From an uncultured Acidobacteriota bacterium (GTDB taxonomy: Bacteria; Acidobacteriota; Polarisedimenticolia; J045): 64,000 nucleotides of DNA. The translations under genes were made by a program, and so were the position numbers. Below the pieces are notes generated by a model, which was given only the letters and a program-made list of their open reading frames with translations, did not search any database and was not told the origin of the DNA. The stretch spans positions 4,992 to 68,991 of the forward strand of contig CAVPCQ010000038.1 of the NCBI GenBank assembly GCA_963702425.1, written 5' to 3'. Below are positions 22,095 to 60,056 of the stretch, in pieces. Within the stretch, counting starts at the first letter, position 1; each line of letters starts with the position of its first letter.

Positions 22095-22120
22095 GTAGGG
22101 GCCGGCCTCCGTGCCGGCCC
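22095..22120. repeat. REP-like hairpin element, single copy (variant CTCCGT loop)
   Basis: GTAGGGGCCGGCCTCCGTGCCGGCCC has the stem GGCCGGC/GCCGGCC. It belongs to the same family as the elements at 35685-35798 and 44607-44724. Confidence 0.7.
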
Positions 22121-32787: not shown

Positions 32788-32972
32788 ACGCCGACATTCG
32801 GCTGTGAACGCTGTCGCGGTCTCTCGGCCCGGCCGCGGATCGTCGGGTCGGCCGGGGCCCCGCTTCGACCTGTCGCCGCCACGTCGCATGCCGGCGCCGA
32901 CCACGGCGCCGGCCTCCGTGCCGCGTCGGTCCGGAACGTCGCGACCGGCAAGGGAGCGGGCCGCTCCCGGGC

Positions 32973-33916: not shown

Positions 33917-35623
33917 CTACGGTGCACGCGAACCGACGCGCAGCATCGCCGCCGCTCCGATGCGCCGCTCGTCCCCCCGTCGCCCCTCGACGCGCCAGTA
34001 GAGCGAGCCGCCGTCGCGCGCCAGCGCCGTCGCGCGGCGCCACTGGTCGGCGCCCGGGGTCCACGACGTCGCACGGGTCCAGCGGCCGGAGGTCACGATC
34101 CGCCCGGCGGCCTGCGGGTCGGCGCTGAAGACGACGCGGCATTCGTCCATTCCGGCCGCGTCCCAGGAGAACGTCGGGAGCCGGTCGGGCACGGCCGCCG
34201 CCGCGCCGCCGCCCGCCGCCAAGCCCGCCGCCGTGTCCACCACCGCGCCATCGCCCGGCGCCAGCGGCCGCGGCGCGGTGTCGTCCGGGTACCACCGGGG
34301 GAACGCGTCCCCCCGCGGCCAGGCCTCGGCGCGCGCCGCGGCGCGCCGCAGCACGGACTCGACCTCCCACAGGAACGCCTCGGTCTGCACCGGCTTCGTA
34401 TTGAAGACCGCCGCGAACGCGCGGCCGTCGGTGATCCGCATCAGCAGCGCCGTCGAGCCGAAGAGCGAGCCGCCGTGCCAGACGGCGGCGCGCGGCCCGT
34501 CGGGACGCACGTACCAGCCCAGGCCGTACCAGGCATCGCGCAGGATCCAGGTCGATAGCTGCGGGCGGAGCAGCATCAGGCGCTGGGTACCGGGCGAAAG
34601 GAGATCCGGCCGCTCCGGCAGCCCGTCCACCGCCGTCATGAAGCGCACGAGGTCGATCGCGGAAGCGGTCCAGCCGCCCGCGCTGTCCATCGCCTCGATG
34701 TAAAACCCGCCATCCGGCCAGGCGACCAGGTCCTCCTCGTCCGGGAAGACCGAGCGGACGAGCGCGCGAACTCCGGAGTCGTAGTAGCGCACCTCGCCGG
34801 CTGGCCGGTCCGCGGGCCGGGAGCGCCCGATCCGCATCCGCGTGATCCCGAGCGGGGCGAGGATTGCGCTCCGCACGTACTCCTCGTAGCCCATCCCGGA
34901 AGCGTGCTCGATGACCCGGCCGAGCAGCGCGTAGCCGAAGTTGGAGTAGGAAAAGCGGCCGCCCGGCGAGAAGTCGAGCGGCCGACCCTTCACGAAGCGG
35001 ATCACCGTGCGCGCGTCGGCGGGGGCGGGGGCGTCGACGGCCTGCGCGGTGAGGCGCGGCGCGAACATCGGGTCGAGCGAGAGCAGGCGATCCCAGCCGG
35101 CGGAGTGGTTGAGCAGGTCGCGCACCGTGATCCGCTCCAGCCGCGGGTCGGGGCTGGCGCCGGCGGGAGGAGCGAGGTCGGGGAACATCGGGAAGACGCG
35201 CTCGTCGAGGCGCAGCCTCCCGTCCTCGACCAGTTCGAGGATCGCGGTCGCGGTCACCGTCTTGGAGACGCTGCCGATCCGGAAGACCGCATCCGGGGCG
35301 ACGGGCAGGCCGCGCGCGACGTCGGCGTAGCCGAAGCCGCGAGCGTAGACGAGGCGGTCGTCGCGGATCACGGCCAGCGCGCCGCCGGGGATCTCCCAGC
35401 GCTCCATCAGCGCCAGCATCTCGCGGTCGAAAGCGGCCAGGCCGGGCACGGCCGTGCCGGTGATCGGGAAGGGGTGCGTCTCGCGGGCGACGGGGGTCCG
35501 GCCGGGGGCGGGGGCCGGGGCGGCGGCAGGCAGGGCCGCGGGAGGCGGGGCAGCGCACGGTCCCGGCGTGGCCACGAGGCCCGTCGAGAGGAAGGCGACG
35601 ATCGCGAGGCGCCGGCCGGGCAT
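33917..35623 (-). CDS. serine hydrolase, class C beta-lactamase/DD-peptidase family, with C-terminal extra domain
   Basis: 568 aa from ATG 35623 (GGAGG upstream) with a signal peptide. S-x-x-K motif: FRIGSVSKTVTA. Y-x-N motif: FSYSNFGYALLG. The C-terminal ~150 aa lie beyond the catalytic domain. Confidence 0.8.
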   Translation of the reverse strand: MPGRRLAIVAFLSTGLVATPGPCAAPPPAALPAAAPAPAPGRTPVARETHPFPITGTAVPGLAAFDREMLALMERWEIPGGALAVIRDDRLVYARGFGYADVARGLPVAPDAVFRIGSVSKTVTATAILELVEDGRLRLDERVFPMFPDLAPPAGASPDPRLERITVRDLLNHSAGWDRLLSLDPMFAPRLTAQAVDAPAPADARTVIRFVKGRPLDFSPGGRFSYSNFGYALLGRVIEHASGMGYEEYVRSAILAPLGITRMRIGRSRPADRPAGEVRYYDSGVRALVRSVFPDEEDLVAWPDGGFYIEAMDSAGGWTASAIDLVRFMTAVDGLPERPDLLSPGTQRLMLLRPQLSTWILRDAWYGLGWYVRPDGPRAAVWHGGSLFGSTALLMRITDGRAFAAVFNTKPVQTEAFLWEVESVLRRAAARAEAWPRGDAFPRWYPDDTAPRPLAPGDGAVVDTAAGLAAGGGAAAAVPDRLPTFSWDAAGMDECRVVFSADPQAAGRIVTSGRWTRATSWTPGADQWRRATALARDGGSLYWRVEGRRGDERRIGAAAMLRVGSRAP

Positions 35624-35684
35624 CCGCGAGACCTCCGGGAGCGGGATTATGCCCGCCCCGGGGCCCCCCGGCTGCGCCGCCCGA

Positions 35685-35798
35685 AGGGGCCGGCCTTCGT
35701 GCCGGACCGACCGACGACGGGCAACCAGCGGGCCGGCACAGAGGCCGGCCCGACCGACGACAGGCAACCTGCGGGCCGGCACAGAGGCCGGCCCCTAC
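35685..35798. repeat. REP-like hairpin array (three hairpins; the two right-hand units have a 43-bp period)
   Basis: GGCCGGCcttcgtGCCGGAC sits at 35688-35707 in the opposite orientation. GGCCGGCACAGAGGCCGGCC then occurs at 35731-35750 and 35774-35793, each preceded by CGACCGACGAC(G/A)GGCAACC(A/T)GC. The array ends ...GGCCGGCCCCTAC at 35798, 8 nt before the stop of the M14 gene. Confidence 0.8.
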
Positions 35799-35805
35799 GG
35801 CGTCA

Positions 35806-38800
35806 TCAGGGAGTCGGCTCCTCGCCCGAGGTGCCGGCGGCGTTCTTCGCCGCGACCAGGTAGAACGACGAACCGCTCGCGGCCCCGCCGGTCGTGTCGC
35901 GCCACGCGGCCGACGTCGGTTCGCCGACCGCCCCGTACCCGCCGGTCGGCGTCCCCGAGCGGTAGACCGGGTAGGTGCGGGCCGCGTCGTGCAGTGCGTC
36001 GACCGGCGGTGCGGTCCACGACAGCCGGACGTCTCCCGCCCGCCGCTCCGCACGCAACGTTCCGCCGACCGGGTTGGGCGGCTTCGTCTCCGAGGGCGTG
36101 AACGGGACGCAGCCGTCGAACTGCCGCACCACGCGGACGTCGTCGATCAGCAGCTCGGTGAGCGGGTCGGCGCTGATCTGCGAGGTCTCCTCGGCCTCGA
36201 AGCGCACTCGCATGCTGGCGGTCGGTGTGAGGAGCGAGGTGAGGTCGATCGTCACATCGGTCCAGGCGGCCGCATTCGTGGACAGGTCCTCGATCGTGGC
36301 ATAGGTCGTGCCCCCGTCGGTGCTGACCTTCGCACGCGCGTTGGAGGCTTGCAGGAAACCGACTCCGCTGCGGTGGTAGAAGCGCGAGAAGTACAGCATC
36401 AAACGACCGCCCCCGAGGCCGCTGAAGACCGGGGAGCTGATGTGGACCCGGCCCCGGTCGACGTCGCCGGTGTGGGGGTCGAATCCAGGGCCGACGAAGG
36501 CGTTGCCGGTGACCCAGCAGATCGTGCCGGGCGCCGGCGTGCGGTCGTCCTCGGGCTGGACCGGACCGACGGACGGGTCGGTGAAGCCGTTCGGGTCCAG
36601 CCGCTCGAACCGGCCGCTGATCGTGGTGCCGCCGACGCTCCACCCCTTGTCGGTCTGGAAGTTGTCCGAGAGCAGCGTCTGCTCGGTCGGATCGCCGATC
36701 ACGATCGTGAAGTTGCTGCTCGTCGTGCCGCCATCCTGCCAGCGGGTCGTCAGCCGCAGCGTGACGTCCGGCCCGCACGGGCCGGTGAGCTCCACGGAGA
36801 AGTGCGGTGCCAGCGAGAACGCGCTCGTCCCGGCCGGGATGTCGGGGTAGTCGGCCACGGCGTCGTGGACCACCACGCCGGAGCTGATCGCCGAGAGCAC
36901 CGCGCTCACCGCCGTCGCGCCCGCGCCGCCGCTGTTGACGGCCTCGATCCGCAGGACCGCCGTCTCGCCCGGGTCGAGCAGGCCGTCGCCGTTGCCGTAG
37001 GCCGGGTTCGAGTCGTCGATGACGTGGCTCTTGTACTTGACGCGCGGCGTCGAGTTGCGAAGCTGCTCGCCGCAGATCGCGAGGTCGTCGAGGTAGAAGC
37101 CGGCCCCGGTCGTGCCGCTGTCTGAGGACAGCGAGAACCGGACGTAGACCTCCGACTCACCGTCGGCGAGGCCGGAGATGTCGTAGCGCACCGGGACCCA
37201 GGCCGTGTCGCGCCCGAATCCTTCCCACACGACCTGCCAGCCGTTCGAACCGGCGGTCTCGATCTCGACCCGCGCGATGTCGAAGCCCGTCTCGCTCCTG
37301 AGCCAGCGCGCGAAGCGCAGCTCTGAGTTCCGCAGCGTCGAGAGGTCGTAGGGACCGGCGGTCAGGAAGTAGGCCGCGCTGTCGGAGTAGTTGCCGTCGA
37401 GGTTGGTGCCGTAGACGTTGCTGCCGGTGTAGGCCGCGGTCGGGCCCGGTCCGGACGGGCTCGGCACCCCGAACTCCCAGCCGTTCGTGAAGGCGCCGTT
37501 ATCGATCTGCCAGGCCGGGTCGGCGTCCAGGGTCTCTTCGACCGAGGGACAGGCGACATTCCCGGTGGTGACGCGCAGCGTCCAGCTCCGCGCGGCGCCG
37601 CACGGTTCCGGGCTGCCGCCGAAATCGACGCTGATCGTCGCCTCGTAGCCGTCCGGCGTGCCGGCGGCGAAGGCGATCCGCACCGGGTCGCCGGCGGCGG
37701 CCTCGCGGGTCTCGCCGGCGGCGAGGCTGCCGAAGCTCGGTCGTGCCGTCGAGGATCGTCAGGTACGGGTCGGAGGACGTCACCGTGGCCGTCAGGCCGG
37801 CGAGGGCGTCACCGGTCGCGTAGGCCGAGAGGTAACAGGTCGACCGTCTCGCCCGGGTCGATCCGGCCGTCGCCGTCGCCGCCGCTCTCGACCACCCGCA
37901 CGCCGCGCACGGCCGCGTCGGCCGAGCCGGCCGGGACCAGGAAGACCTCGCGAGCGAACGGCGCGAAGCCGACGTCGGTCGGCCAGGCCTGGGAGGCGTA
38001 GCCGCTCCGCGACGCCTGCAGCGTGTAGCTGCCGGCGAGCACGGGCCAGTCGTAGCGCGCGAAGTCGGGCGTCGTCGTGCGCGGCAGCTCGCCGTTGGTG
38101 AAGACCTGCTCGGCGAGGCCGATGGTCGTCCCGGGCAGCGCAGCGCCGGTGCAGGCGTCCTTCACGTGACCGGTCAGCCGCGGGCCGTCGAGCAGCTCGA
38201 GCGTGTAGCGCCAGCCCGCGCGGGCCCGCAGGACGGTCGTCTCGCGCCACGTCGCGTAGTCGGGCTGGAACCCCTGGCTGTCGGCGTTCAGCTCGTACGT
38301 CACGCCGACCGCCCCCAGCTCGCCGTACATCCAGCCGTCGGTGTCGCCGTCGACCGAGTAGAGCAGCTCCCACGGCGTGCCGAACTGGAACCAGGTCCCG
38401 GCGACGTCGCCCTGCATCCGGGACGCGGCCACGTTGGCCAGCTCGCGGAACATCCGGAAGTCGGGCTGAGCCACGGAGGAGCTCTCGCAGCCGTAGGGAT
38501 GGAGCGTGTACCCGCCGTAGGTGTGGTACGAGATGTAGTAGACGGGGCGCTGCTGCCGGGCGAGGTTGATCAGCCCGATGTTCGTCGGCTCCGAGCCGGG
38601 GCTCGGGCCGCGGTAGGTGTCGGAGCTGGGGCTGCCCGACGAGCCGCCGCAGGCGTTCCAGGTCAGCGGGTAGTTGCGGTTGAGGTCGACGCCGAAGCTG
38701 CCGTCGCCGTTGTTGCGGCGGTTCTTGCGCCAGTTCGACTCGTTGGTGAACACGTAGCTGGCGCCGTCCGGGTTGTGCGACGGCAGGACCCAGATCTCGC

Positions 38801-39443
38801 TCTCGTTGACCCAGCGGGTGATCGTCGGGTCGGTGCCGTACTGCGTGAGCAACTGGTCGATCGTGTCGATCGCAACCTCCGGCGTCATCACCTCGCGCGC
38901 GTGGTGCTGCGCGACGTAGAGCACCGCCGGCTCGTCTTCCTCGACGGCCACGTTGTCCGAGATCTTCATCGCCCAGGCGGTTCGACCCTCGTGGTCGGTG
39001 GCATAGGCGACCCGCTTGGCGAGCGCGGGGTAGGCCGACTCGAACTGCGCGAGACGGGCCTCGAGCTCCGACGGCGACAGGTAGTCCGACAGCGCCTCCG
39101 GCGCGAGCGGGCCGTCCGCCGGCTGCGGGTCGAAGCCGAGCGTCCGCAGCAGCGCGATCTCCGCCTCGCCCCCCATCACGTCGAGCGTCCCGCGCTTGGC
39201 GTTGACGTAGGTCACGTCGAGGCCGCGCAGCTTCAGCTCGTCCAGCAACTGGCGGGGGTCCTGATCGAAGCGGATACGCAGCCGGACCGTCGGGCTGGCC
39301 GGAGTCACGGGGGCCGCGGCTCCGTCCTCTCCCGCCAGTGCGGGCGAGACGGCGAGGCTCGCGGCGGCGACGGCGGCGACGAGAGCGATGAGCAGGCAGG
39401 CGGCGGACGACAAGAGAACGACGAGCCGGGCACGGGTGCGCAT
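35806..39443 (-). pseudogene. secreted M14 zinc carboxypeptidase fused to large beta-sandwich (MAM/LamG-like) region and C-terminal FN3-like module; two +1 frame disruptions (about 37830-37840 and 37735-37758)
   Basis: Frame 1 (37809..39443) carries a signal peptide and the motifs QHHAREVMTPE (HxxE), SHNPDG, DLNRNY, ISYHTYGG. It ends ..GRIDPGETVDL, then runs into TGA. Frame 2 (part of 37499..37783) reads YLSAYATGDALAGLTATVTSSDPYLTILDGTTE. Frame 3 (35806..37683) reads FGSLAAGETREAAAGDPVRIAFAAGTPDGYEATISVDF.... All three pieces read as one continuous protein. Confidence 0.75.
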
Positions 39444-39512
39444 GAGGGGACTCCGCGGGGGGTAGCGCGACCTATTTACCGCGATTTAGTCCCCGAGGGA
39501 ACCGGAAGCGTG

Positions 39513-39884
39513 TCAGGCGGTCCGGACCTCGATCTGCGGCGGCCGCTCGAGGTGCTTCTTGACCGCGCAGAGCTGGGCCGAGCGGATCACCGCCTCGCGG
39601 TACTGCTCCGGGAACCCGGGTGGCAGCTCGATCGTGAGCTCGATCTTCCCGATCAGCTTCGAGGCCGGGTCCTGGATCATCCGCTGGCGGATGACCAGCC
39701 CCTCGGTCGGGAGTCCGCGTTGGCGCAGGAAGCTCGAGACGTAGATCCCGGCGCAGGTGCCGATCGAGGCCAGGAAGAGCTGGAAGGGGGAGGGGGCCGA
39801 GCCGTCCTGGTCGGTGACCAGACGGATCCCGTCCATCACCGCGTCGACGCGGTCGCCGCCGGGGAATTCGATCGTCATGTCCAT
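39513..39884 (-). CDS. OsmC/Ohr-family peroxiredoxin-like protein
   Basis: 123 aa. The two conserved Cys contexts are present: LASIGTCAGIYV and SAQLCAVKKHL. Confidence 0.8.
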   Translation of the reverse strand: MDMTIEFPGGDRVDAVMDGIRLVTDQDGSAPSPFQLFLASIGTCAGIYVSSFLRQRGLPTEGLVIRQRMIQDPASKLIGKIELTIELPPGFPEQYREAVIRSAQLCAVKKHLERPPQIEVRTA

Positions 39885-39913
39885 GCCGGAGAGATGCGGG
39901 ACGGCGGGGCGGG

Positions 39914-41053
39914 TTACAGCTGCTCGCCGAGGCGCTGGGTGCAGTCGGGATAGTCGCAGCAGGTGTGACAGACGCGCTTGTAGGCGTTGAAGGAGAGCAG
40001 CTCGACGGTCGGCGTGAGGTGCTCGGGCTTCTCCGGTTCCTCGCGCAGCAGATCGGTGGAGAGGTACTTCTTGTTGTCGTCCGGGAAGACGGTCACCACG
40101 ACCGCGTCGGGGCCGAGCTGCTCCTGCACCTCGAGCGCGGCGACGAAGTTGGCGCCGGACGAGATCCCGACGGCCAGGCCCAGCTCTCGCGCCAGCTTCT
40201 GGGCCATCAGGATCGCGTCACCGTCGCAGACGTCGACGACCGGATCGAGCGCGTCGAGCCGGACGATCTCCGGGATGAACTCGTCGGAGATCCCCTGGAT
40301 CCGGTGCTGGCCGACCTTGCGGCCGGTCCGCAGCGTGGGCGAGCTGGCCGGCTCCATCGGGTGGATCCTGATCGCGGGGCGCTGCTGCTTCAGGTAGGTG
40401 CCGACGCCCATGATCGTCCCGCCGGTACCGACGCCGGCGACGAAGGCGTCGGGGGTGACGCCGTTGGCGCGAAGCTGCCACCAGATCTCGGGCGCCGTGG
40501 CGGTCGCGTGGGCCTCGCAGTTGTGCTCGTTGGCGAACTGCCGCGGGAGGAAGCATCCCCCGTCCGAGGCCAGCTCCTCGGCCATCCGGATGCTGCCGAG
40601 AAAGCCCCCTTCTTCACGCGTCACCGGGCGGATCGCGGCGCCGAGGCTGCGGATCAGCTCGACCCGCTCGCGGCTCATCCAGTCGGGCATGAAGATCGTC
40701 ACCGGGTGGCCGAGCGCGCGCCCGATCGCGGCGAAGGAGATGCCGGTGTTGCCGGAGGTGGCCTCGACGATCCGCTCGCCGGGCGCGAGGCAGCCGTCGG
40801 CGTAGGCCCGCCGCAGGATGTGAAGCGCCATCCGGTCTTTGATGCTGCCGGTCATGTTGAGCTGCTCGGCCTTGGCGAAGATCCGCCGCGTCCGGCCGCG
40901 GAAGCGGAGTGCGATCTCGAGAAGCGGGGTGTTCCCGACCAGGTGGCCGATCGCCTGCAGGCGCCGCGTGGGCGGGTCGGCAGCGGGGAGGCCGGCCGGA
41001 GGTGGCGGCGGGAACGGGGAGAGGGTCCGTCGGGGTGGCGGTTGCGGGTTCAC
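39914..41053 (-). CDS. cysteine synthase / PLP-dependent beta-replacement enzyme (CysK/CysM/CBS family) with Cys-rich C-terminal tail; start uncertain
   Basis: Motifs seen: GNTPLL, PLP-lysine context [41 protein letters not shown]. The extra tail reads ..[28 protein letters not shown] 41053 is my choice of start; the track uses TTG 41191. Confidence 0.75.
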
Positions 41054-41200
41054 GGTGCGGGGAGGATAGCGCACCGGGCCGCCGATGCAGCGGAAGCGGG
41101 TATCGACGGGGCCTACCGAGTCGCGGCCGCCGGCCCGGTCGTCGCCGCGCCGCGCTTCTCCTGGTGGCAGGTCACGTCGCGGCAGGGCCAAGGCCCCCCG

Positions 41201-43090
41201 CTAGCGCCTCCGCCACCCGCCGCCCCCCGGCAGGACCGCGTCCCGTCCCGGCCGGCGCGGCTCCCAGGGCGCGATCCACGGCGAGAGCGGCAGCCGGTCC
41301 TCCGCCGCCTCCAGCTCCTCCGCCAGCCCGGCCGAGCCGGCCACGACCGGCGCCCACTCCTCGCCGCGGCGCTTGCCGGCGATCTCGTCCAGCTCGCGGT
41401 GGGCGAGGTCGCGGATCTCCGGCCGCAGCCCCTGGGCGGCGATCTCCTCGGTGAAGGCCCGGCGCCCCTCGACGAGGTCGGCCACGAAGGCGGCGATCTG
41501 CTCGCTCGAGTAGAAGTTCTCGGCGCGGTAGGGCGACAGGTCGGTCCCCTCCGAGCGGACGACCTCCTCGGTGTTGAGCCGACCCTTGAGGTACTCGTTG
41601 GTCCCGCGCAGGTCGCCGCGCTGCAGCGCAGCCATCAGGTCGATCGGTACGCGCGTCACCTTGCGGACCAGCTTCTTCGCGCCGGTCACCTTGTCGGTCT
41701 CGATGATCTCGCCGACGCCACCGGTGTTGTACTGGAAGAAGTGGACCTTGCCCGGGTGACGGTTCACCAGCTCCATCACGATCTCGTGGAACGCGTTGAC
41801 CTTGCGCCCCTGCTGGCCGACGATGAAGTCGTCCATGCCGACGATCCGGACGCTCTCCCCGGCCTTTTCCGGCACCGTCGCGAAGGAGTGCGTCGACTCG
41901 CCCCACAGGTAGGCCAGCACCCCCTGCTGCGGCGTCAGCCGCTGCGCGAAGGGCATGATCGTGGCGCGGCGCGTGATGAACGAGAAGACGATCCCGTCGA
42001 GCTGGTCGAGCGGCGCAACATTGATCGAGTCGTGGCAGATCGAGACGAACTTGCGGCCGCGCTGGACCACCAGCCGGCGCCGGTCCAGGACGCCGCGGCT
42101 GTTCTCGCCCAGCCGCTCGTCGAGGAAGCTCGCACGGCCCTTGTAATCGACCATCGTGTTCTCGAGCAGCGTGCTCTTATGGGCCAGCGCGTGGTACATC
42201 GCCTCCTGCAGCTTGATGTCGACATCGGTCTTGACGTAGAAGCCCTGCTCGGTGCCGTAGGACGAGCCGTCGCGCCGCAGCCAGACGATGTCGTCCTGCG
42301 CGACCCAGGTCCCCTCGCCCTGGTCGGGGTCGAGCCCGAGCTGGTGGCAGGACCAGGTCGACTTGCCGGTGGCCGTCAGGCCGAACATGAAAACGCCGAA
42401 GGTCTTGAGCTTGCCGGCCTTCGCGTCGCGCGCGCGGACGACCTTCGTCCCGGCGTGCAGGCCCAGCATCCCGCGCTCGTCGGCGCGGTACATTCCCTGG
42501 CGCAGGAACCCCTTCTTGCACTCGCCGGTGTAGTCCGAGCCCATCGCGATGTTGATGTCGTGCTCGGGGAGCGAAAGGATCTGCATCCGGACCGGGTGCT
42601 CTTCCGGGAGGTCGATCATGATGAACTCCGGCCCGGGCCGGCCCGGCCGGACGTCGTTCATCGTGCAGCCCCACATGTAGGCCAGGCGCGCGTTCTTGGG
42701 GTCGGCGACCGAGACGTAGAGGTTGCAGATCGGGTTGAACTCGGGGTTGTCCCCCATCTGCCGCCGGACGTGGACGAACGGCAGCGTCCGGATCAGCTGC
42801 AGCACCTTGTGCAGTTGGTCGGGCGAGCGCTCGGCCAGCTGGAGCTGGAGCTTGCTGGCCCGCGGCAGCCAGACCCCGGAGCTGCCGAGGAAGAGCGTCC
42901 GTGCCGCCATCCGCGAGGAGATCGCCGAGTACCAGACGTGCGAGCCGTCGGCGGTCCGCCGGGCGAAGGGGAGGGCCATCCGCCGCAGCTGGCGCATCGA
43001 GACGTGCCGGATGTTCGGGCCGTCGAGGCTGCTCCTCAGGTTGTCGGCGAATCGCCTGTAGACATCGGGATCGTACGGGCCGCTTGCCAT
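41201..43090 (-). CDS. phosphoenolpyruvate carboxykinase (ATP)-like protein, divergent, with ~90-aa C-terminal extension
   Basis: 629 aa. GSDYTGECKKGFL matches the YxGExKKG motif. The kinase-1a P-loop reads FGLTATGKST (canonical GLSGTGKTT). Also seen: ..AQDDIVW..GFYVKT.., LLENTMVD. The C-terminal tail is Arg/Glu/Pro-rich. Confidence 0.7.
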   Translation of the reverse strand: MASGPYDPDVYRRFADNLRSSLDGPNIRHVSMRQLRRMALPFARRTADGSHVWYSAISSRMAARTLFLGSSGVWLPRASKLQLQLAERSPDQLHKVLQLIRTLPFVHVRRQMGDNPEFNPICNLYVSVADPKNARLAYMWGCTMNDVRPGRPGPEFIMIDLPEEHPVRMQILSLPEHDINIAMGSDYTGECKKGFLRQGMYRADERGMLGLHAGTKVVRARDAKAGKLKTFGVFMFGLTATGKSTWSCHQLGLDPDQGEGTWVAQDDIVWLRRDGSSYGTEQGFYVKTDVDIKLQEAMYHALAHKSTLLENTMVDYKGRASFLDERLGENSRGVLDRRRLVVQRGRKFVSICHDSINVAPLDQLDGIVFSFITRRATIMPFAQRLTPQQGVLAYLWGESTHSFATVPEKAGESVRIVGMDDFIVGQQGRKVNAFHEIVMELVNRHPGKVHFFQYNTGGVGEIIETDKVTGAKKLVRKVTRVPIDLMAALQRGDLRGTNEYLKGRLNTEEVVRSEGTDLSPYRAENFYSSEQIAAFVADLVEGRRAFTEEIAAQGLRPEIRDLAHRELDEIAGKRRGEEWAPVVAGSAGLAEELEAAEDRLPLSPWIAPWEPRRPGRDAVLPGGGGWRRR

Positions 43091-43170
43091 GCAAGGACCT
43101 CTCGGGACAGCGGGCGGGAATCGGATGTTAGTCGGTCGGGAGCGCCGAGGGCAAGCGAAGCCGGGCCCGG

Positions 43171-43199
43171 TTGTAGTCCCCCGCCGATTGTCCTATGGT
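43171..43199 (+). promoter_or_regulatory. candidate sigma-70-type promoter for the flotillin gene
   Basis: TTGTAG (43171-43176), a 17-nt spacer, then TATGGT (43194-43199). It lies 36 nt upstream of ATG 43235, whose RBS is GGAGGAG. Confidence 0.3.
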
Positions 43200-43234
43200 G
43201 GTTCCCCCTACCCAGCACGGACTCGGAGGAGTCC

Positions 43235-44593
43235 ATGCCCCTCACCTGGATCCTGGTCGGCGCGGCCGGCGTCGTCATCGCCACGGCCGCCGCGGCCGCT
43301 TTCTATCGCTACAGGAACTACCGGAAGGCGGGCCCGAACCAGGTGCTCGTCATCTCCGGGCGTCCGTCGACCCTGACGGACGCCGAGGGACGGACCCGAA
43401 CGGTCGGCTACCGGCTCCAGATCGGCGGCGGCACCTTCGTGCGGCCGCTGGCGGAGACGGTGGACGTCCTGCCGCTCGAGGTCTTCTCGATCTCGGTGAA
43501 GGCGCCGGACGTCATCACCTCGCAGGGGGTGCTGATCTCGGCCGACGCCCAGGCGCAGGTCAAGGTCTCCTCCGAGGAGGGGGACCTGCACCGCGCGGTC
43601 GAGAACTTCCTGTCCCGCGGCGCGTCCGGCATCACCTACGTCGCGCAGGAGGTCCTGGAAGGGCACCTGCGCTCGGTGCTGGGCGGGATGACGGTCGAGG
43701 AGATCTACACCGGGCGCGAGGAGGTCGCGGAGCGCCTGCGCCGGCAGGCCGATCCGGACTTCCGGCGGCTGGGGCTGGAGCTGGTCTCGTTCTCGCTCAA
43801 GGACGTGGCCGACGCGCAGGGCTACATCGCCGCGATCGGCGCGCGCCGCCTCGCGGAGATCAAGCGCGACGCGGCGATCGTCCAGGCCGAGACCGAGCGC
43901 GACGCGGCGATCAACGCCGCCGAGGCCCGCAAGGAAGGGGACGTGGCGCGGCTGCGCGCCGAGGCCGAGCTGGCCGAGGCGACGCGCGACTTCGAGATGC
44001 GGCGGGCCGACTACCAGGCCGACGTCAACACGAAGCGGGCGCACGCGGACCTGGCCTACGACCTCGAGCGCGCGAAGGGCGAGCTGGTCCTGCGGCAGGA
44101 GGAGTACCGCGTCCGGCTGACCGAGAAGGAGCTGGCGGCCAAGGTCGAGCAGGCCGAGGTCGTGCGCCGCGAGCAGGAGCTGGAGGCGAACGTCAAGCGG
44201 CCGGCCGAGGCGATGCAGTTCCAGGCCCGGCTGGAGGCGGAGACCGAGGCCTACCGGAAGGAGCTGGAGGCCAAGGGGCGCGCCGCCGGCGTGCGGCTGG
44301 AGGGGGCCTCGCAGGCCGAGGCGATCGCGGCGAAGGGGAAGGCGGAAGCCGACGCGATGCGTCAGAAGGCCGAGTCGTGGAAGCAGTACAACGACGCCGC
44401 GCTGGCCGAGATGATCGTGAAGGTGCTGCCCGAGCTGGCGAAGAACATCGCCGAGCCGCTCTCCAAGGTGGAGAAGATCATCATGGTCGGCGACGACGCC
44501 GGCGTGCCGAAGATCACCGGGCAGGTGGCCCAGGTCGTCGCGCAGCTGCCGACCGTCGTCGAGGCGCTCACCGGCCTCAAGCTCGCGACCTGA
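43235..44593 (+). CDS. flotillin-family SPFH/Band-7 protein
   Basis: 452 aa. An N-terminal TM helix is followed by the SPFH domain (..VLVISGR..FVRPLAETVDVLPLEVF..V.A.D..T.QGV.I...A.AQVKV..). A long Ala/Glu/Arg coiled coil follows, then the C-terminal ..PELAKNIAEPLSKVEKIIMV. Confidence 0.85.
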   Translation: MPLTWILVGAAGVVIATAAAAAFYRYRNYRKAGPNQVLVISGRPSTLTDAEGRTRTVGYRLQIGGGTFVRPLAETVDVLPLEVFSISVKAPDVITSQGVLISADAQAQVKVSSEEGDLHRAVENFLSRGASGITYVAQEVLEGHLRSVLGGMTVEEIYTGREEVAERLRRQADPDFRRLGLELVSFSLKDVADAQGYIAAIGARRLAEIKRDAAIVQAETERDAAINAAEARKEGDVARLRAEAELAEATRDFEMRRADYQADVNTKRAHADLAYDLERAKGELVLRQEEYRVRLTEKELAAKVEQAEVVRREQELEANVKRPAEAMQFQARLEAETEAYRKELEAKGRAAGVRLEGASQAEAIAAKGKAEADAMRQKAESWKQYNDAALAEMIVKVLPELAKNIAEPLSKVEKIIMVGDDAGVPKITGQVAQVVAQLPTVVEALTGLKLAT

Positions 44594-44606
44594 TCAAAAA
44601 GAAGAC

Positions 44607-44724
44607 GTAGGGGCCGGCCTCTGTGCCGGCCCGAGGAATGCCGGCCTCTGTGCCGGCCCGAGGAATGCCGGCCTCTGTGCCGGCCCGAAACCTCGTGCGG
44701 GCCGGCACAGAGGCCGGCCCCTAC
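44607..44724. repeat. REP-like hairpin array: 27-bp unit x3 plus one inverted copy (candidate terminator/REP cluster)
   Basis: GCCGGCCTCTGTGCCGGCCCGAGGAAT occurs at 44613-44639 and 44640-44666, with a truncated third copy from 44667. GTAGGGGCCGGCCTCTGTGCCGGCCC (44607-44632) is the exact reverse complement of 44699-44724. The array starts 14 nt after the flotillin stop. Confidence 0.85.
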
Positions 44725-44765
44725 CGGCGGCCGAGCGATACGGGGGCCGCCCGCGTGGATGACCG

Positions 44766-47093
44766 ATGCTGACGGAACGCGTCAACCGGATTGCCCTGTC
44801 GCCGACGCTCAAGCTCTCCCAGCGCGCGGCGAAGATGAAGGCCCAGGGGGTCGACGTCGTCGACTTCACGATCGGCGAGCCCGACTTCCCGTCGCCCGAG
44901 GCGGCGAAGCAGGCGGCCAAGGCCGCGCTCGACGCCAACTTCACCAAGTACGTCCACCCCGACGGGATCCTCGAGCTGCGCCAGGCGATCGGCGAGAAGC
45001 TGCGCCGCGACAACGGGCTGTCCTACGAGACCGACGAGATCATCGTCAGCCCCGGGGCCAAGAACTCGATCTACAACGTCGTCCTGTCGCTGTTCGGGCC
45101 GGGGGACGACGTGCTGATTCCGGCCCCGTTCTGGGTCTCCTACCCGGACCAGGTCGTGCTCTCCGGCGCCAACCCGGTCCTGCTCCGCACCCGCGAGCAG
45201 GAGGGCTTCAAGCTGATGCCCTCCGACCTCGCCGCGGCGGTGACCCCCAACACCAAGGGGATCATCCTCAACTACCCGAGCAACCCGACCGGGGCGGTCT
45301 ACTCCCGGGCCGAGCTGGCCGCGCTGGCGGAGATCTGCGTCAAGGAAGGGATCTGGATCATCAGCGACGAGATCTACGAGAAGCTGATCTACGGCGGCCA
45401 GCGCTTCGTCTCGATCGCCTCGATCGACGAGCGCGTCAAGAAGATCACGATCGTCATCAACGGCTTCTCCAAGGCCTTCTCGATGACCGGCTGGCGGCTG
45501 GGCTACGCCGCCGGGCCGAAGGAAGTGATCGCCGCCTGCTCGAAGATCCAGTCGCACACCACCTCGGGCGCGACCTCCTTCGCCCAGAAGGGGGCGCTCG
45601 AGGCGCTGCGCAGCTCGCAGATGGACGTCGAGCGGATGCGCCAGGAGTTCGAGCGGCGCAAGAACGCGGTGCTCTACCGGCTGCGCGCGATCCCCGGGGT
45701 CTCGGTCGCCTCGCCCGACGGCGCGTTCTACGCCTTCCCGAACGTCTCCCGCTACCTCGACAAGGAGTTCGGCGGCGCCCCGGTGCGCAACACCTACGGG
45801 CTGGCCTACTACCTGCTCAAGGAGGCCCGCGTCGCGGTCGTCCCGGGCGAGGCGTTCGGCAGCCCGGAGCACATCCGGATCTCGTTCGCGACCTCGATGG
45901 ACCGGATCGAGGAGGGGATGAAGCGGCTCGCCGCGGGCCTGGCGCGGCTCGAGTCGCCGCGCCGCCTGCGCCCGCGCCAGCTCAACAACGTGCTGACGAA
46001 GGTCTCGCGCTACGCCGAGGTGCGCGCGGTGCCGTCGATCGACGAGCGCAACACGCTGCTGGCCGAGGCCGAGCGGCACCTGCCGGCGGACTCCTACTTC
46101 GAGTGGAACGCGGCGATCGGCGGCGTGGTGGTCCAGCTGCGCACCAACTCGCCGCACCTGGCCGACTTCTTCCAGGAGAACTTCTACCCCGCGCCGCTCG
46201 AGGGGGACATCGCGCCCCACGCGGTGATCTACGCGGTCAAGGACATGCCGGGCCGCGAGCCGTCGGCGCTCCTGAGCCTGCCGACCGCGACCGCCTTCGC
46301 CTTCAACACCGCCTTCTACGGCCAGGTCCGGACGCTGGCGCTGGTCCTGGCCGCGGACGCCGCGACGCGCATCAGCGGCGCGCTGTTCGTCCACGCCGCG
46401 GCGATCGACCGCGGCGGCCGCGGCGCGCTGCTGTGGGGGATGCCGGGATCGGGCCGTACCGGGCTGCTGGCCGAGCTGCTGCGCGAGGACGGCGTCAAGC
46501 TGGTCGGCAACGACGCGCTGCTGGTCCGGATGTCGGGCGCCGACGCGCTGGTCGACCTGGTCGAGCGCAAGCTCTACCTCAAGGCCAAGTGGGGCCAGCA
46601 CTTCCCCGAGATCGAGAAGCTGCTGGACCGGGCCAAGCTGGAGAACCTGGTCACGACCCACGACCAGTGCACGGTCGAGTACTGCCCGATCGCGCAGGAG
46701 TGCACGCTCGACCGCGGCGCGGCGGCGTGCCTGGCGGCGTCGGGGAGCGGCCGGATCCTGCTCGACCCGGCCTGGCTCGGCGGCGGACGGCAGCACGTGC
46801 GCCGCACCGTCGGGCGGCTCGCGGTGCTGCTGGCCAAGGACCCCGCGCTGCCGTCGGTGCAGGAGCTGTCGCCGCGCGACGCGGCGCGCTACCTGTCGGG
46901 CGGCCAGCTTCCCGGCGCGCGCGGCCCGGCCATCCCGTACCTGAACCCGCACCTGGTCGGTGTCGACGCCGCGCGCAACGACGCGCTGCGCGCGCAGTAC
47001 GAGCGGCTCTTCGCCTGCACGCGGGCGGTCGTCGTCAACAGCGGGGTGGGCTCGCGCGAGGCGATCGCGCGGCGGGTGCTCGAGCTGCTCTGA
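44766..47093 (+). CDS. fusion protein: class I aspartate/aromatic aminotransferase (N-terminal ~395 aa) + HprK/PEPCK-fold kinase-like domain (C-terminal ~375 aa)
   Basis: 775 aa. Aminotransferase motifs: DFTIGEPDF, YPSNPTGAVY, INGFSKAFSMTGWRLGY (PLP Lys), IRISFA. The C-terminal part reads ..FVHAAAIDRGGRGALLWGMPGSGRTGLLAELLREDGVKLVGNDALLV.. (P-loop-like at 46437-46463, with Arg where GxxGxGK has Lys). This resembles the HPr kinase core. Confidence 0.8.
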   Translation: MLTERVNRIALSPTLKLSQRAAKMKAQGVDVVDFTIGEPDFPSPEAAKQAAKAALDANFTKYVHPDGILELRQAIGEKLRRDNGLSYETDEIIVSPGAKNSIYNVVLSLFGPGDDVLIPAPFWVSYPDQVVLSGANPVLLRTREQEGFKLMPSDLAAAVTPNTKGIILNYPSNPTGAVYSRAELAALAEICVKEGIWIISDEIYEKLIYGGQRFVSIASIDERVKKITIVINGFSKAFSMTGWRLGYAAGPKEVIAACSKIQSHTTSGATSFAQKGALEALRSSQMDVERMRQEFERRKNAVLYRLRAIPGVSVASPDGAFYAFPNVSRYLDKEFGGAPVRNTYGLAYYLLKEARVAVVPGEAFGSPEHIRISFATSMDRIEEGMKRLAAGLARLESPRRLRPRQLNNVLTKVSRYAEVRAVPSIDERNTLLAEAERHLPADSYFEWNAAIGGVVVQLRTNSPHLADFFQENFYPAPLEGDIAPHAVIYAVKDMPGREPSALLSLPTATAFAFNTAFYGQVRTLALVLAADAATRISGALFVHAAAIDRGGRGALLWGMPGSGRTGLLAELLREDGVKLVGNDALLVRMSGADALVDLVERKLYLKAKWGQHFPEIEKLLDRAKLENLVTTHDQCTVEYCPIAQECTLDRGAAACLAASGSGRILLDPAWLGGGRQHVRRTVGRLAVLLAKDPALPSVQELSPRDAARYLSGGQLPGARGPAIPYLNPHLVGVDAARNDALRAQYERLFACTRAVVVNSGVGSREAIARRVLELL

Positions 47094-53012: not shown

Positions 53013-55688
53013 GTGGAGTCGAGCCGGCCATCTGCGATCGGCCTGAGCGTCGTCGTCGCCGTGCTGCTCACGACGGCCCCCGGCGTGCGCGGCGCGCGCG
53101 AGTTGACGCTCGACGAACGGGTCGATGCCCGGTGGGCGATCGAACAGGTCTTCTGGAACCACCGCATCTGGCCGGCGGAGAATCCCGGACCGAAGCCCTC
53201 CCTCGAGCAGGTTGTTTCCAGGCTCGCGCTCCGAGCGCGGGTGGAGCGCGAGCTCGAAGCCTTCGCCGCCGCCGAACGGTCGATCGGCCGCGCGATCACG
53301 GCCGACGAACTCCAAGACGAGGTCGCGCGCATGACCCGCGACAGCCGGGATCCGGAGATGCTGCGCGAGCTCTTCCGCGCCCTGAATGACGACCCCGAGC
53401 TGATCGCGGAGTGCCTGGCGCGCCCGCTCGTCGCGGATCGGCTGCGGCAAGGCGCGGCCCCCGCCGGATCGAAACTCCTGCCGCCGCTGGAGACGAAGCG
53501 GCGCCCGTGGTCGTTCTGCGACTACGACACCTGGCGCCAGATGACACCGTCCCCGCTCGCGCCGCGCAGTCACCACAGTGCGGTTTGGACCGGGAGCGAG
53601 ATGATCGTCTGGGGCGGTGCAGAGCCCGGGGCCACGCAGACGGGGGCGATCTACACCCCCGCGATGGGTTACTGGTTCTTCACGTCGATCACTCGCTTTA
53701 CGCCCGAGCCGCGCCTCGAGCACACCGCGGTCTGGACCGGGAGGGAGATGATCGTCTGGGGCGGCCGCGACCCCGCGATGGGCGAGGGCCAGTGGCTCCA
53801 GACCGGCGGCCGGTTCGATCCCGCCACCGGTGCGTGGACTCCGGTCTCCGTCCCGGCCGAAGCGCCTTCGGCACGCGCGCGCCACACCGCCGTCTGGACG
53901 GGGAGCGAGATGGTGATCTGGGGCGGCGAGGACCGAGCGGGCTCGCTCGACAGCGGCGGCCGCTACGACCCGGCGACGGAGCGCTGGCGCGGGGTGGGGC
54001 AGGCCGGATCGTTCATGCCCGGGCCGCGCAGCGGACACACGGCGACCTGGACCGGGGGCGAGCTGCTCATTTGGGGCGGCGAGTACAAGGACGCGTCCGG
54101 CGGCCGTCGCGCCCTGGGAGACGGCGCACGCTGGTCAGCGCTCGCGGACGCCTGGACTCCCGTCACGGCGGCCGGCGCGCCGAGTCCCAGGCGCGGACAC
54201 ACCGCGATCTGGACCGGAAGCGAGTTGATCGTCTGGGGCGGCCTCGATGATTCTGGAAACCCACCGACCGACGCGGGTGCGCGCTACGACCCGGCCACCG
54301 ACGGCTGGCGCGCCGTCAGCGCCGTCGACGCGCCATCCACCCGGGAGCTCCACAGCGCCGTGTGGACGGACCAGGAGATGGTCGTCTGGGGTGGCCTCGA
54401 TACGACCGGAGCGCCGCCGCTCGACGGCGGGGGCCGTTACGACCCGAAGAACGACCGCTGGGGCGCAACCACGGCGGATCGTGCGCCGGGCGGCCGGGCG
54501 CATCACACGGTCGTGTGGAACATCGGGGAGATGATCGTCTGGGGCGGGAGCGGGGGCGTCGCAGGCAGTCTGCTGGGCGATGGCGGCCGATACTGCGCGC
54601 AATGCCCGTACTGGTTCCCGGATGCCGACGGCGACGGGTTCGGTCTCTACGGAACCGGCGTGATCGCGTGCGAGCAGCCGGCTGCATATGTGGACAACTT
54701 CGACGACTGTGACGATACCGACGCGAGCATTCACCCGGGTGCAGAAGAGACCTGCAACCTGAAGGACGACAACTGCAGGGAGGGCGCGGACGAGGGCGTC
54801 ATGACACGGTTCTACCGGGACCGGGACGGCGACGGGTTCGGGCGAGCGGATGACGGCTGGTCCGCCTGCACCGCTCCCGAAGGCTACGTCGCGGACGCGA
54901 CCGACTGCGACGACTCGCGCGCGGCCGTCCATCCCGGAGCCGAGGAGCGGTTCCTGCTGGACAACTGCGATGACGGTCTCGACAACGACTGCGACGGCCT
55001 GTCCGACGACAGGGAGCCGGACTGCGCCAGCAGCATCACCAAGCCGGACTTCCCGTGGGCGCCGCCGCTGATCTACGCCGGACGTCCCGCCGAGCTGCGC
55101 ACCGGCGGTGCGCGATGCGATCTTGGCGATCCGGTCGAGTACCAGTTCCGATGGGGAGACGGCGCACTCTCCGAGTGGACCACCACCGGCCGAGCGAGCC
55201 ACACCTGGGTGGAGCCAGGCGAGTACGCCGTGCCGGCCCGGGCACGCTGCGGCGGTCACCCGGAGATCCTGTCGCCTTGGTCGACACCCGTCAGGATCCG
55301 CGTCAGCGCGCAACCCACGAGCGGGCCCGATCTCGTCGCCAGCCCGCGTTCCGTTCGGCAGGACTGCAAGCGGCGGAGCGGGGTCGAGGTCTGTACGCTC
55401 AAGGCCCGGATCGCGGTGCGCAACACCGGCGATGATCCCACTTGGTCGAGCCGGCTCGATTGGCTCGTCTCAGATGCGTTGGTCTGGGAGGAAGGCGACA
55501 AGCCCCTCTCCTCGGTCTTCGTGCCGGAGCTGAGGCCAGGCCGGACAAAGACCGTCAAGATCCTGTACACAATCCCCGGCGGGACGAGCGGGCGCGGAAA
55601 GTACCTCCTGGGACGATTGGACCCGGCCAACCGCATCCGGGAGCGGGACGAGCTGAACAACGACTTCGCGGTCGCGATTGGGCCCTAG
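53013..55688 (+). CDS. secreted Kelch-repeat protein with Cys-rich putative metal-binding repeats and PKD/CARDB-like C-terminal domains
   Basis: 891 aa from GTG 53013 with a signal peptide. At least seven repeats of H(T/S)AVWTG.E(M/L)(I/V)(V/I)WGG are present. Two to three D.DGDG(F)G.......C....(Y)V....DCDD.....HPGAEE motifs follow, then beta-sandwich domains. The stop TAG 55686-55688 lies in the MITE-flanking CTAG. Confidence 0.75.
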   Translation: MESSRPSAIGLSVVVAVLLTTAPGVRGARELTLDERVDARWAIEQVFWNHRIWPAENPGPKPSLEQVVSRLALRARVERELEAFAAAERSIGRAITADELQDEVARMTRDSRDPEMLRELFRALNDDPELIAECLARPLVADRLRQGAAPAGSKLLPPLETKRRPWSFCDYDTWRQMTPSPLAPRSHHSAVWTGSEMIVWGGAEPGATQTGAIYTPAMGYWFFTSITRFTPEPRLEHTAVWTGREMIVWGGRDPAMGEGQWLQTGGRFDPATGAWTPVSVPAEAPSARARHTAVWTGSEMVIWGGEDRAGSLDSGGRYDPATERWRGVGQAGSFMPGPRSGHTATWTGGELLIWGGEYKDASGGRRALGDGARWSALADAWTPVTAAGAPSPRRGHTAIWTGSELIVWGGLDDSGNPPTDAGARYDPATDGWRAVSAVDAPSTRELHSAVWTDQEMVVWGGLDTTGAPPLDGGGRYDPKNDRWGATTADRAPGGRAHHTVVWNIGEMIVWGGSGGVAGSLLGDGGRYCAQCPYWFPDADGDGFGLYGTGVIACEQPAAYVDNFDDCDDTDASIHPGAEETCNLKDDNCREGADEGVMTRFYRDRDGDGFGRADDGWSACTAPEGYVADATDCDDSRAAVHPGAEERFLLDNCDDGLDNDCDGLSDDREPDCASSITKPDFPWAPPLIYAGRPAELRTGGARCDLGDPVEYQFRWGDGALSEWTTTGRASHTWVEPGEYAVPARARCGGHPEILSPWSTPVRIRVSAQPTSGPDLVASPRSVRQDCKRRSGVEVCTLKARIAVRNTGDDPTWSSRLDWLVSDALVWEEGDKPLSSVFVPELRPGRTKTVKILYTIPGGTSGRGKYLLGRLDPANRIRERDELNNDFAVAIGP

Positions 55689-55851: not shown

Positions 55852-57572
<1,721 letters not shown>

Positions 57573-57596: not shown

Positions 57597-58061
57597 TGGT
57601 AGGGGGGGTGGGGATGGGGGGGTGTGGGGGCACAGAGGCGGCCTACAGGCGGCACCGACAGGTCGAAACGTCGGCTGCGTCGTCGGGCCGGCACGGAGGC
57701 GGGTTTCTACAGGAAGGTGAGGGGGGACGGAGTTGCGCGTCAGGTTGCGCGAGCCGGCCACGGCCAGCGTCCCGTCGCGCGGCCGGTACTCGAGCAGCTC
57801 GAGCACCTCGTCCCCGCGCGGCGCCAGGGGATGCGCCTTCGGGTGGCGCACGATGCCGAACAGCACCCGCCGAACGCTCCCGTCGGCATCCAGCTCATGC
57901 TCGAGGATCGTCGCGCGACCGCGGTGGTGGGGCTTCAGGCGCCCGGCCGCGAGCAGCTCGGGCCGCGCCGCGAAGAGCTCGTCCAGCGCGGCGCGGGCCG
58001 CGGCCAGCGCGCGGCGGCGGGCGTTCCAGCGGGCGAGCGCGGCGGGGAGCCGGGTCAGCAC
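57582..58061 (-). CDS. hypothetical protein (weak call)
   Basis: 159-aa ORF from GTG 58061 with no obvious RBS. The first ~110 aa look protein-like (..ILEHELDADGSVRRVLFGIVRHPKAHPL..EVLELLEYRPRDGTL..). The C-terminal part runs through REP-like and C-rich sequence. The stop is 9 nt from the permease start. Confidence 0.3.
   Translation of the reverse strand: MLTRLPAALARWNARRRALAAARAALDELFAARPELLAAGRLKPHHRGRATILEHELDADGSVRRVLFGIVRHPKAHPLAPRGDEVLELLEYRPRDGTLAVAGSRNLTRNSVPPHLPVETRLRAGPTTQPTFRPVGAACRPPLCPHTPPSPPPLPRASP
57602..57630 (+). repeat. G-quadruplex-type motif (G7-T-G4-AT-G7-TGT-G5)
   Basis: GGGGGGGTGGGGATGGGGGGGTGTGGGGG on the + strand. That strand is the template strand for the flanking minus-strand genes. 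Confidence 0.6.
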
Positions 58062-59916: not shown

Positions 59917-60056
59917 CCCGGACCTCCGCGGCGCGCGCCGACCCCGTTCGCGGGGGTGCGCGCGGCCCACCACGGGAAAGGTGGGTCCCACGGCGGGCGA
60001 AGGGTAGGGGCCGGCCCCCGGGGGAGGGGGAGGGAGGACGGGGCCCCGTCGGGGGG

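Follow-up and report, generated by a model that had tools for sequence, protein, structure and literature searches.

Short palindromes in which an unpaired 5' GTAG precedes a stem of 6–13 bp make up the GTAG superfamily of repetitive extragenic palindromes (REPs) (PMC3733652; PMC2817692). Members of this superfamily occur as singletons, as dimers with GTAG outside (head-to-head, HH), and as tandem clusters that carry flanking DNA along; they lie between unidirectional or convergent open reading frames (ORFs), near 3' ends, where the TAG is often the stop codon of a gene. Occasional copies are intragenic and in frame, and the same repeats flank genes for REP-associated tyrosine transposases (RAYTs). 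Here, we analyzed a stretch of 64,000 nt of contig CAVPCQ010000038.1 (positions 4,992–68,991, forward strand) from an uncultured Acidobacteriota bacterium, henceforth referred to as the window, in which an initial annotation made from the letters alone had pointed out a recurring hairpin. We find that this hairpin and its counterparts in other genomes share all of these features, and we conclude that it very probably represents a genuine GTAG-tagged REP family spread by a domesticated RAYT transposase. Each distribution property measured here has been described by Di Nocera, De Gregorio, and Rocco (2013; PMC3733652), whose survey we cite for Acidobacteria only as regards RAYT-like genes with long terminal inverted repeats on their flanks; a canonical GTAG-REP/RAYT system in Acidobacteriota is not described in the literature examined. 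Two properties differ from the survey and the superfamily: head-to-tail (HT) neighbors, rare in the survey, are the commonest arrangement here (39 of the 77 neighboring pairs among the matches listed), and the loop has 6 nt whereas most described loops have 2–4 nt. The initial annotation had called the consensus unfamiliar, which is correct for the exact sequence, as four 20-mer forms of the hairpin had no match in the searchable full-text literature and none in the text or supplements of PMC3733652, but not for its type: the consensus is a member of the GTAG-REP superfamily.

Three better-studied systems allow a closer comparison. The REPtrons of Stenotrophomonas maltophilia and Marinomonas (Corneloup et al. 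2021; PMC8266576) likewise combine a short, perfectly paired REP after GTAG with a single HuH/Tyr transposase gene that stands among cognate REPs and inverted REPs. The bacterial interspersed mosaic elements (BIMEs) of Escherichia coli, which are mosaics of Y and Z REPs, are similar in their intergenic clusters, inverted pairs with short linkers, and tandem reiteration, but bulged long REPs and an alternating-orientation rule are absent here, no conserved linker motif was seen, the amplified units of the window are tag-less direct repeats, and spacers vary between loci. Because same-orientation tandem pairs dominate, the BIME label in its strict E. coli sense, with regularly alternating orientation and defined linker motifs, does not fit; otherwise the REP/BIME-type behavior proposed initially is supported. 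Finally, the REPINs of Pseudomonas fluorescens (Bertels and Rainey), whose apparent unit is a pair of inverted REPs with a short variable spacer, resemble pairs that we find in L192 and at several loci of metagenome-assembled genomes (MAGs), and their associated RAYT is vertically fixed, as the gene here appears to be, but singletons are commonest here (51 of the 89 clusters among the matches listed).

The REP unit in the window is GTAGGGGCCGGCCTC[C/T]GTGCCGGCCC, 26 nt long, and its hairpin, GGGCCGGC-CTCYGT-GCCGGCCC, pairs perfectly over an 8-bp G+C stem that closes a 6-nt loop; the loop had been recognized as such, whereas the stem is one pair longer than the 7 bp first given. Folded as DNA, a single unit reaches −11.2 kcal/mol with this 8-bp stem and 6-nt loop, and GTAG is left unpaired. 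In total, the window contains eight foldable hairpins, two of which are tag-less tandem units, at three intergenic loci, as well as four decayed relics, and thus eight hairpins plus four relics per 64 kb at six loci. GTAG precedes four of the eight hairpins, and it occupies the tag position in 126 of 166 hairpins when the Acidobacteriota loci among the matches listed are taken together with the window. G+C content is approximately 72% throughout the window. The counts far exceed expectation. The 26-mer GTAGGGGCCGSCCTCYGTGSCGGCCC has six matches with up to three mismatches against 0.00 expected, and none in 100 dinucleotide shuffles. Scanning the window for GGCCGGC-N6-GCCGGCC returned exact matches at 22100, 35731, 35774, 44612, and 44700 and matches with one mismatch at 35688, 44639, and 44666; allowing up to two mismatches raises the number to 21, compared with 7.7 expected, and none of 100 shuffles reached it. 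The loop-centered 12-mer GGCCTCYGTGCC occurs eight times against 0.08 expected, the relic at approximately 32.9 kb included, and the 13-mer GTAGGGGCCGGCC five times against 0.02 expected, the truncated copy at 60004 included. No Rfam family matched anywhere in the window at gathering thresholds. Counts at chance level and a mostly coding location had been named in advance as outcomes that would speak against a repeat family, and neither is seen.

To determine how far the family extends, we scanned one genome per species for GGGCCGGCCTCYGTGCCGGCCC and obtained at least 100 loci, most of which come from five Acidobacteriota/Thermoanaerobaculia MAGs. The counts in this paragraph refer to the matches listed, that is, to the listed loci of these five MAGs together with the window. 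Aligned copies from all five MAGs and the window share the identical consensus GTAGGGGCCGGCCTC[C/T]GTGCCGGCCCG, and the sequence beyond it is unrelated. One MAG carries at least 42 copies in approximately 24 loci, distributed over a 3.27-Mb contig and others. By our own gene calls, 103 of 117 copies are intergenic, although the non-coding share of that DNA is just 13%. Flanking genes are co-directional in 57 cases, convergent in 35, and divergent in only 2 of these 94, even though 26% of the intergenic length lies in divergent gaps. REPs follow a stop codon at a median distance of 10 nt, and 43 of 389 confident genes stop on the TAG of the REP's own GTAG. When two mismatches and a second stem variant are allowed, 166 hairpins fall into 51 singletons and 38 clusters of two to six, in which 39 neighboring pairs have the same orientation, 28 have GTAG outside, and 10 have GTAG inside. 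Relative to transcription, copies occur in both orientations.

The identical 26-nt REP with its GTAG is also present in MAGs assigned to 'delta proteobacterium', Chloroflexia, Berkiella, Omnitrophica, Elusimicrobia, Bacillota, and other groups, with local G+C content down to 43%. MAG contamination may underlie these cross-phylum matches; their local flanks are nonetheless low in G+C. Two further arrangements were observed. In the 'delta proteobacterium' MAGs CAWBGG01 and CAWESZ01 (63–65% G+C), the REP lies inside a conserved composite element of approximately 145 nt (L010, L014, L022, L037, L038, L041, and other loci of these MAGs) that adds a second REP type, GTAGTGGCCGGCGTCCCTGCCGGCCA, in tail-to-tail position and has the outer arms GTAGTGGGCGGTTTTG...CAAAACCGCCCACTAC. 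In L021, from Noviherbaspirillum aridicola, a 134-nt unit is repeated five times in tandem on the minus strand (~5750–6300), and each unit includes AGTAGG-GCCGGCCTCCGTGCCGGC, in which the hairpin is the same but the tag is followed by one G fewer and the flanks differ.

The link to a transposase comes from sister genomes, in which a RAYT gene, proposed by the initial annotation as a test, is flanked by arrays of the identical REP. Searching E. coli rayT (MG1655) against all ORFs of the fetched loci yielded two matches. In the Acidobacteriota MAG MFD00032.bin.3.166 (L053), positions 1882–2376 of the minus strand encode a 164-aa HuH/Tyr Y1 transposase that matches the Pfam model Y1_Tnp with 27.2 bits (cut-off 23) and the NCBIfam model NF047646 REP_Tyr_transpos with 73.2 bits (E = 2e-20). 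In an alignment with E. coli RayT, its motifs PDHLH, WQ, and REYIRTNP fall opposite H59/H61 and VDYIYINP, the last of which presumably contains the catalytic Tyr (Y115). REPs identical to those of the window bracket the gene, six on one side and five on the other, the five all being in the opposite orientation. Homologs that are 71–79% identical carry the JGI label 'REP element-mobilizing transposase RayT', and the RAYTs P0001 and P0002 (76–79% identical), encoded on four contigs (L102–L105), are flanked by the same REP; these contigs also carry a REP variant with one stem pair flipped from G-C to C-G (GCCGGC to GCCGCC with the partner matched). A Tricorn protease gene neighbors the RAYT gene in L053, L103, and L104, and a BNR-like gene does so in L102, L105, and probably L053. 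Because these neighbors recur where contigs extend far enough, the RAYT gene looks chromosomally fixed and not mobile.

As an alternative to REPs, the repeats could derive from an IS200/IS605-type insertion sequence, a class of palindrome-associated transposable elements, either as its ends or as solo remnants. In favor of this reading, the L053 protein matches Y1_Tnp, and its weak matches to solved structures include, among the best, ISDra2 TnpA (E = 0.005) in addition to E. coli TnpA_REP (4er8). The same protein, however, scores just 22.8 bits against the IS200 model NF033573 (cut-off 55) compared with the 73.2 bits of the RAYT model, its gene has the recurring neighbors expected of a fixed locus, tnpB does not adjoin it, and the same GTAG hairpin stands on both flanks in place of distinct left and right ends. 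We, therefore, consider an insertion sequence of this type a very improbable source of the repeats.

The association of RAYT and REP reaches beyond close homologs. RAYT homologs that are 37–42% identical are flanked by inverted GTAG hairpins of their own, and in 70 of 80 metagenomic RAYT relatives with 29–44% identity, a GTAGGGGC-type hairpin stands no more than 400 nt from the gene. Across 94 distinct 26-mers, almost no variation is seen in the tag, at the stem base (GGGC/GCCC), in the closing C-G pair, and at the two ends of the loop (C...GT). Relatives of 29–44% identity retain GTAG-GGGC-NNN-C-CNNNGT-G-NNN-GCCC as a frame, with covariation confined to the three middle pairs of the stem; because the hairpins had been selected for pairing, this covariation is an illustration and not a proof. 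Judged by described traits, the RAYT clade appears to resemble TnpA_Y1 subclass 2.4, or Bertels group 4, for which signature motifs, a variable post-HuH insertion, occurrence in many phyla, and an in-frame REP in the gene have been reported (Quentin et al.; PMC6006769 Table 1). The WQ and YIxxNP motifs, the post-HuH insertion, the in-frame REP, and the presence in many phyla would place it nearer this subclass than the Pseudomonas/Xanthomonas subclass 2.5. Two members of the clade are noted separately. In a Chloroflexia MAG of 48% G+C (L033, 860–1411), the RAYT gene holds a REP of the Acidobacteriota type in frame between the HuH and Tyr motifs, where it encodes GPAQRPAPT, and the gene is flanked by the stem-flipped variant GTAGGGGCCGCCCTCTGTGGCGGCCC. 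In P0001 (JGI 3300037307, L105), REHIRTNP replaces REYIRTNP, so that His stands in the position of the presumed catalytic Tyr; judged by this substitution P0001 may be an inactive copy, and REPs still surround the gene.

Copy number at orthologous sites was compared at the spacer between the flotillin and aminotransferase genes, using orthologs of the window flotillin gene, and five states were found. L191 (85–89% identity to the window) has no REP, and its flotillin gene ends on G-TAG followed by a 13-nt gap; L190, from MAG Prado002 (91%), has a single REP that provides the flotillin stop through its TAG; L192 (90%) has a GTAG-outside dimer with a 14-nt spacer; the window has the same dimer plus two extra, perfectly identical tag-less 27-nt units; and L189 (97.6%) is nearly empty, with only GTAGGGGCCGG ahead of the next ATG and without a counterpart of window positions 44618–44763. 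The copy number of the flotillin junction has, thus, risen or fallen over a few percent of divergence, and it follows from this series that the 27-nt amplification is recent; it was seen in the window alone. The stop codon of the upstream gene is affected as well. In two relatives the GTAG of the REP supplies the TAG stop of flotillin, and the orthologs end in ...DLIKKK[E/P]-TAG, whereas the window gene ends in ...LAT-TGA (452 aa), five codons early, because of a 1-nt deletion near its 3' end (44575–44610) relative to four orthologs. Elsewhere, window positions 55866–59872 are 84–91% identical to a contig of Prado002 (L019), an identity that places the host as a Thermoanaerobaculia-like bacterium related to this MAG. 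In this contig, the spacer orthologous to that at 57.6 kb holds one intact REP compared with two decayed copies in the window.

Arrays of this kind fold strongly. In the fold of the 172-nt spacer at 44.6 kb, the outer copies form a 27-bp stem around both inner hairpins (RNA −114.7 kcal/mol, z = −7.5; DNA −57.9 kcal/mol, z = −11.2), and the 35.7-kb spacer gives a similar result (z = −5.7). Such very stable folds directly after stop codons are also what terminators or attenuators would show that had evolved independently and converged on a G+C-rich stem with no transposase involved, and the ortholog of the 35.7-kb junction fits that picture to some extent, as its one hairpin keeps the stem but has a different loop and no GTAG. 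Convergence cannot explain, however, why loop, stem, and unpaired GTAG are identical across loci and genomes, why copies stand in both orientations relative to transcription, or why the same sequence flanks RAYT genes. In addition, no T-tract follows any hairpin of the window, the downstream sequence being G+C-rich, and a terminator scan of 35000–45500 calls none of the REPs; classification as intrinsic (Rho-independent) terminators was rejected for lack of a T/U tract. We rate convergent terminators as even less probable than insertion sequence ends. Least credible of all, and close to negligible, is that the palindromes bind a host protein (regulator, nucleoid protein, or gyrase) or act as signals for DNA uptake and are kept by that function alone: they are perfect palindromes and E. 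coli REPs bind gyrase and IHF (PMC8266576), but they are nearly missing from divergent (promoter) spacers, conserve an asymmetric tag, decay freely, and recur as the same element in unrelated phyla wherever the RAYT clade occurs, and their RAYT linkage would be left unexplained. As a separate candidate for the 44.6-kb array alone, a CRISPR array was rejected, as the 27-nt units abut without spacers, an inverted copy closes the array, and the flanks encode flotillin and an aminotransferase.

Against a RAYT-spread GTAG-REP family weigh several points that we gather here. A phmmer search with E. coli RayT and the L053 RAYT against the six-frame ORFs of at least 70 aa found no RAYT in the 64-kb window, whose genome may have lost its RAYT; the score of the L053 protein lies below the NF047646 equivalog cut-off of 80; and the majority of same-orientation pairs (39 vs. 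28 + 10) is unusual for most described GTAG families. The loci behind the distribution counts were chosen for containing the REP, and copy counts cover the listed loci. Genes of the window were called with a home-made codon-bias caller trained on the window itself, with neighbors checked against Pfam. Finally, transcription of the copies, RNA stabilization, and RAYT cleavage are things that we infer. Weighed against the arrays of identical REPs around the RAYT genes of sister genomes and the conserved tagged hairpin, these points leave a GTAG-REP family spread by a domesticated RAYT as the reading that we adopt.

The data above demonstrate anatomy, placement, linkage to a RAYT of sister genomes, and differences in copy number at orthologous sites; how the copies would arise can be proposed by analogy with E. 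coli, Stenotrophomonas, and Marinomonas (PMC8266576; PMC3479197). A RAYT that is fixed in the chromosome as a single copy would bind the REP hairpin on single-stranded DNA, would position cleavage with the GTAG foot as a guide, and would rejoin nearby (PMC8266576; PMC3479197), thereby seeding new copies and, by the same analogy, inverted dimers (REPINs); TnpA_REP of E. coli and S. maltophilia cleaves at CT (PMC8266576). An alternative role of GTAG as insertion target was dropped, since published work describes this tag as a guide-like foot (PMC8266576); the REP-less ortholog L191 already ends on G-TAG. Replication slippage between the G+C-rich arms would yield the tag-less 27-nt and 43-nt tandem units, and we ascribe these direct repeats to slippage and not to RAYT because the motif that the enzyme needs is missing. 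Located at mRNA 3' ends, the copies would be transcribed and would form very stable stem-loops, whose most plausible role is protection of the message upstream of them or attenuation of read-through. Because they lie on the transcribed strand after the stop codon, are very stable, and lack a T-tract, protection from 3' exonucleases or attenuation is likelier than intrinsic termination.

The copies in the window and the tandem repeats associated with them are listed in table 1. All of them fall outside called genes, as first described, and the repeat sequences were found where they had been placed, including the three hairpins announced for 35688–35798.

Table 1. REP copies, relics, and associated tandem repeats in the window
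Feature	Coordinates	Strand	Match, fold, or method
Intact single REP GTAGGGGCCGGCCTCCGTGCCGGCCC, loop CTCCGT	22095..22120	+	0 mismatches
Relic GCCGGCCTCCGTGCCG-cgtcgGTCCGGAAC, tag-less, 3' arm broken	32908..32937	+	
Degenerate REP GAAGGGGCCGGCCTTCGTGCCGGACC, GAAG tag, one stem mismatch	35683..35708	+	3 mismatches; DNA fold −8.0 kcal/mol
43-nt tandem duplication, 2.2 copies	35701..35794	.	94% match; Tandem Repeats Finder
REP hairpin with GGTC replacing GTAG, first unit of the 43-nt tandem duplication	35730..35755	-	
Intact REP, loop CTCTGT	35773..35798	-	0 mismatches
Intact REP, loop CTCTGT, left arm of inverted GTAG-outside dimer	44607..44632	+	
27-nt tandem repeat, 2.8 copies	44613..44688	.	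100% match; Tandem Repeats Finder
Hairpin unit T-GCCGGCCTCTGTGCCGGC-CC without tag, copy 2 of the 27-nt tandem unit	44639..44659	+	
Tag-less hairpin unit, third, partial copy of the 27-nt tandem unit	44666..44686	+	
Intact REP, exact reverse complement of 44607–44632, right arm of the dimer	44699..44724	-	
Decayed REP GGGGGCACAGAGGCGGCCTAC, stem deletions, fold lost	57626..57646	-	
Decayed REP GGGCCGGCACGGAGGCGGGTTTCTAC, GGGCCGGC arm and loop intact, GTAG-proximal arm replaced, fold lost	57685..57710	-	
Truncated relic GTAGGGGCCGGCC, tag and 5' arm only, between divergent genes	60004..60016	+	

The REP at 22095 lies in a 223-nt gap between a gene for a metallo-beta-lactamase (MBL)-fold protein (22295–23299, minus strand) and a DUF6982 gene (21646–22071, minus strand), 24 nt upstream of the ATG of the latter. 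At 35.7 kb, the degenerate plus-strand copy is the inverted partner of both minus-strand copies, the second of which is the product of the 43-nt duplication. The GTAG end of 35773–35798 is 7 nt downstream of the stop codon (35806–35808) of an InhA-like/MAM gene (35806–37683, minus strand), and the array precedes a beta-lactamase-family gene (33917–35623) on the same strand. At 44.6 kb, the first REP begins 13 nt past the flotillin/SPFH stop codon (TGA, 44591–44593), and the last ends 41 nt before the ATG of the aminotransferase gene (44766), both genes being on the plus strand. This array had been presented as a 27-bp unit repeated three times plus an exactly inverted copy: the inversion is exact, but the tandem comprises 2.8 copies of which the inner two are tag-less. 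The outermost copies, said to form a composite stem of approximately 118 nt, do pair, as the 27-bp stem around the inner hairpins described above.

The decayed loci at 32.9, 57.6, and 60.0 kb each lie between divergently oriented genes. The copy at 60004 is indeed a real relic, because GTAGGGGCCGGCC is expected just 0.02 times per window, and the 32.9-kb copy, which had been recognized by a tail in common with the 22.1-kb copy (GTCCGGAAC), is likewise a relic. The decay of the pair at 57.6 kb was described correctly and its coordinates are revised in table 1. The minus-strand ORF 57582–58061 that these two copies were said to overlap is probably not a gene: the block conserved with Prado002 starts at 57735, 33 of 48 mismatches fall on one codon position, and this pattern is in phase with the plus-strand ORF 57733–58074 (113 aa, no Pfam match), which conservation and mismatches therefore fit.

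Several other features of the window were observed. The 32.9-kb relic sits in a gene-poor stretch of 0.8 kb (32351–33118) upstream of a Tricorn-protease paralog, and this stretch also contains a 28-nt tandem repeat (32439–32520) and a composite inverted repeat with 56-nt arms (32543–32598 and 32728–32783) that are 89% complementary. The Tricorn gene of the window (28946–32350) was considered as a possible neighbor of a RAYT gene; it is only 34% identical to the RAYT-adjacent Tricorn gene and, hence, a paralog, and the neighboring 186-aa gene is not a RAYT. A 171-nt element that resembles a MITE, with 41-nt terminal inverted repeats and a G+C content below its surroundings, is present at 33528–33698 and 55684–55851; the two copies are 99% identical, the second lies at a synteny break with the Prado002 contig (L019), and no copy was found in 100 fetched REP loci. 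The 891-aa gene 53013–55688 contains seven coding repeats of approximately 153 nt (53554–54558) that are 60–79% identical to the reference copy and each include a conserved motif similar to ...WTGSEMIVWGG, pointing to a repeat protein of the beta-propeller type. A 97-nt tRNA-Val called by ARAGORN (34443–34539, minus strand) lies within the coding sequence of the beta-lactamase-family gene and is probably a false positive.

The least ordinary aspects of the family are the recurrence of its 26-mer in unrelated phyla and in genomes of 43–50% G+C and the unusually clean stepwise junction series. It is possible, though we hold it as doubtful, that the RAYT clade imposes an unusually rigid REP recognition code that has been kept or repeatedly transferred across phyla. 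If this were true, the junction series would represent steps of REP birth, dimerization, slippage, and excision and would offer a natural system for studying REP dissemination, which is poorly understood (PMC8266576). The current understanding of REPs is unchanged by our findings. For annotation, the family accounts for most of the strong hairpins and most of the short tandem repeats that lie between genes in this lineage and cautions against calling REPs terminators, CRISPR-like arrays, or small ORFs. The family extends canonical GTAG-REP/RAYT systems to Thermoanaerobaculia-like Acidobacteriota, and its copy-number polymorphism between contigs that are 90–98% identical, which could be used as a strain marker and as material for studies of REP dissemination, means that it is still turning over and altering the 3' ends of genes.

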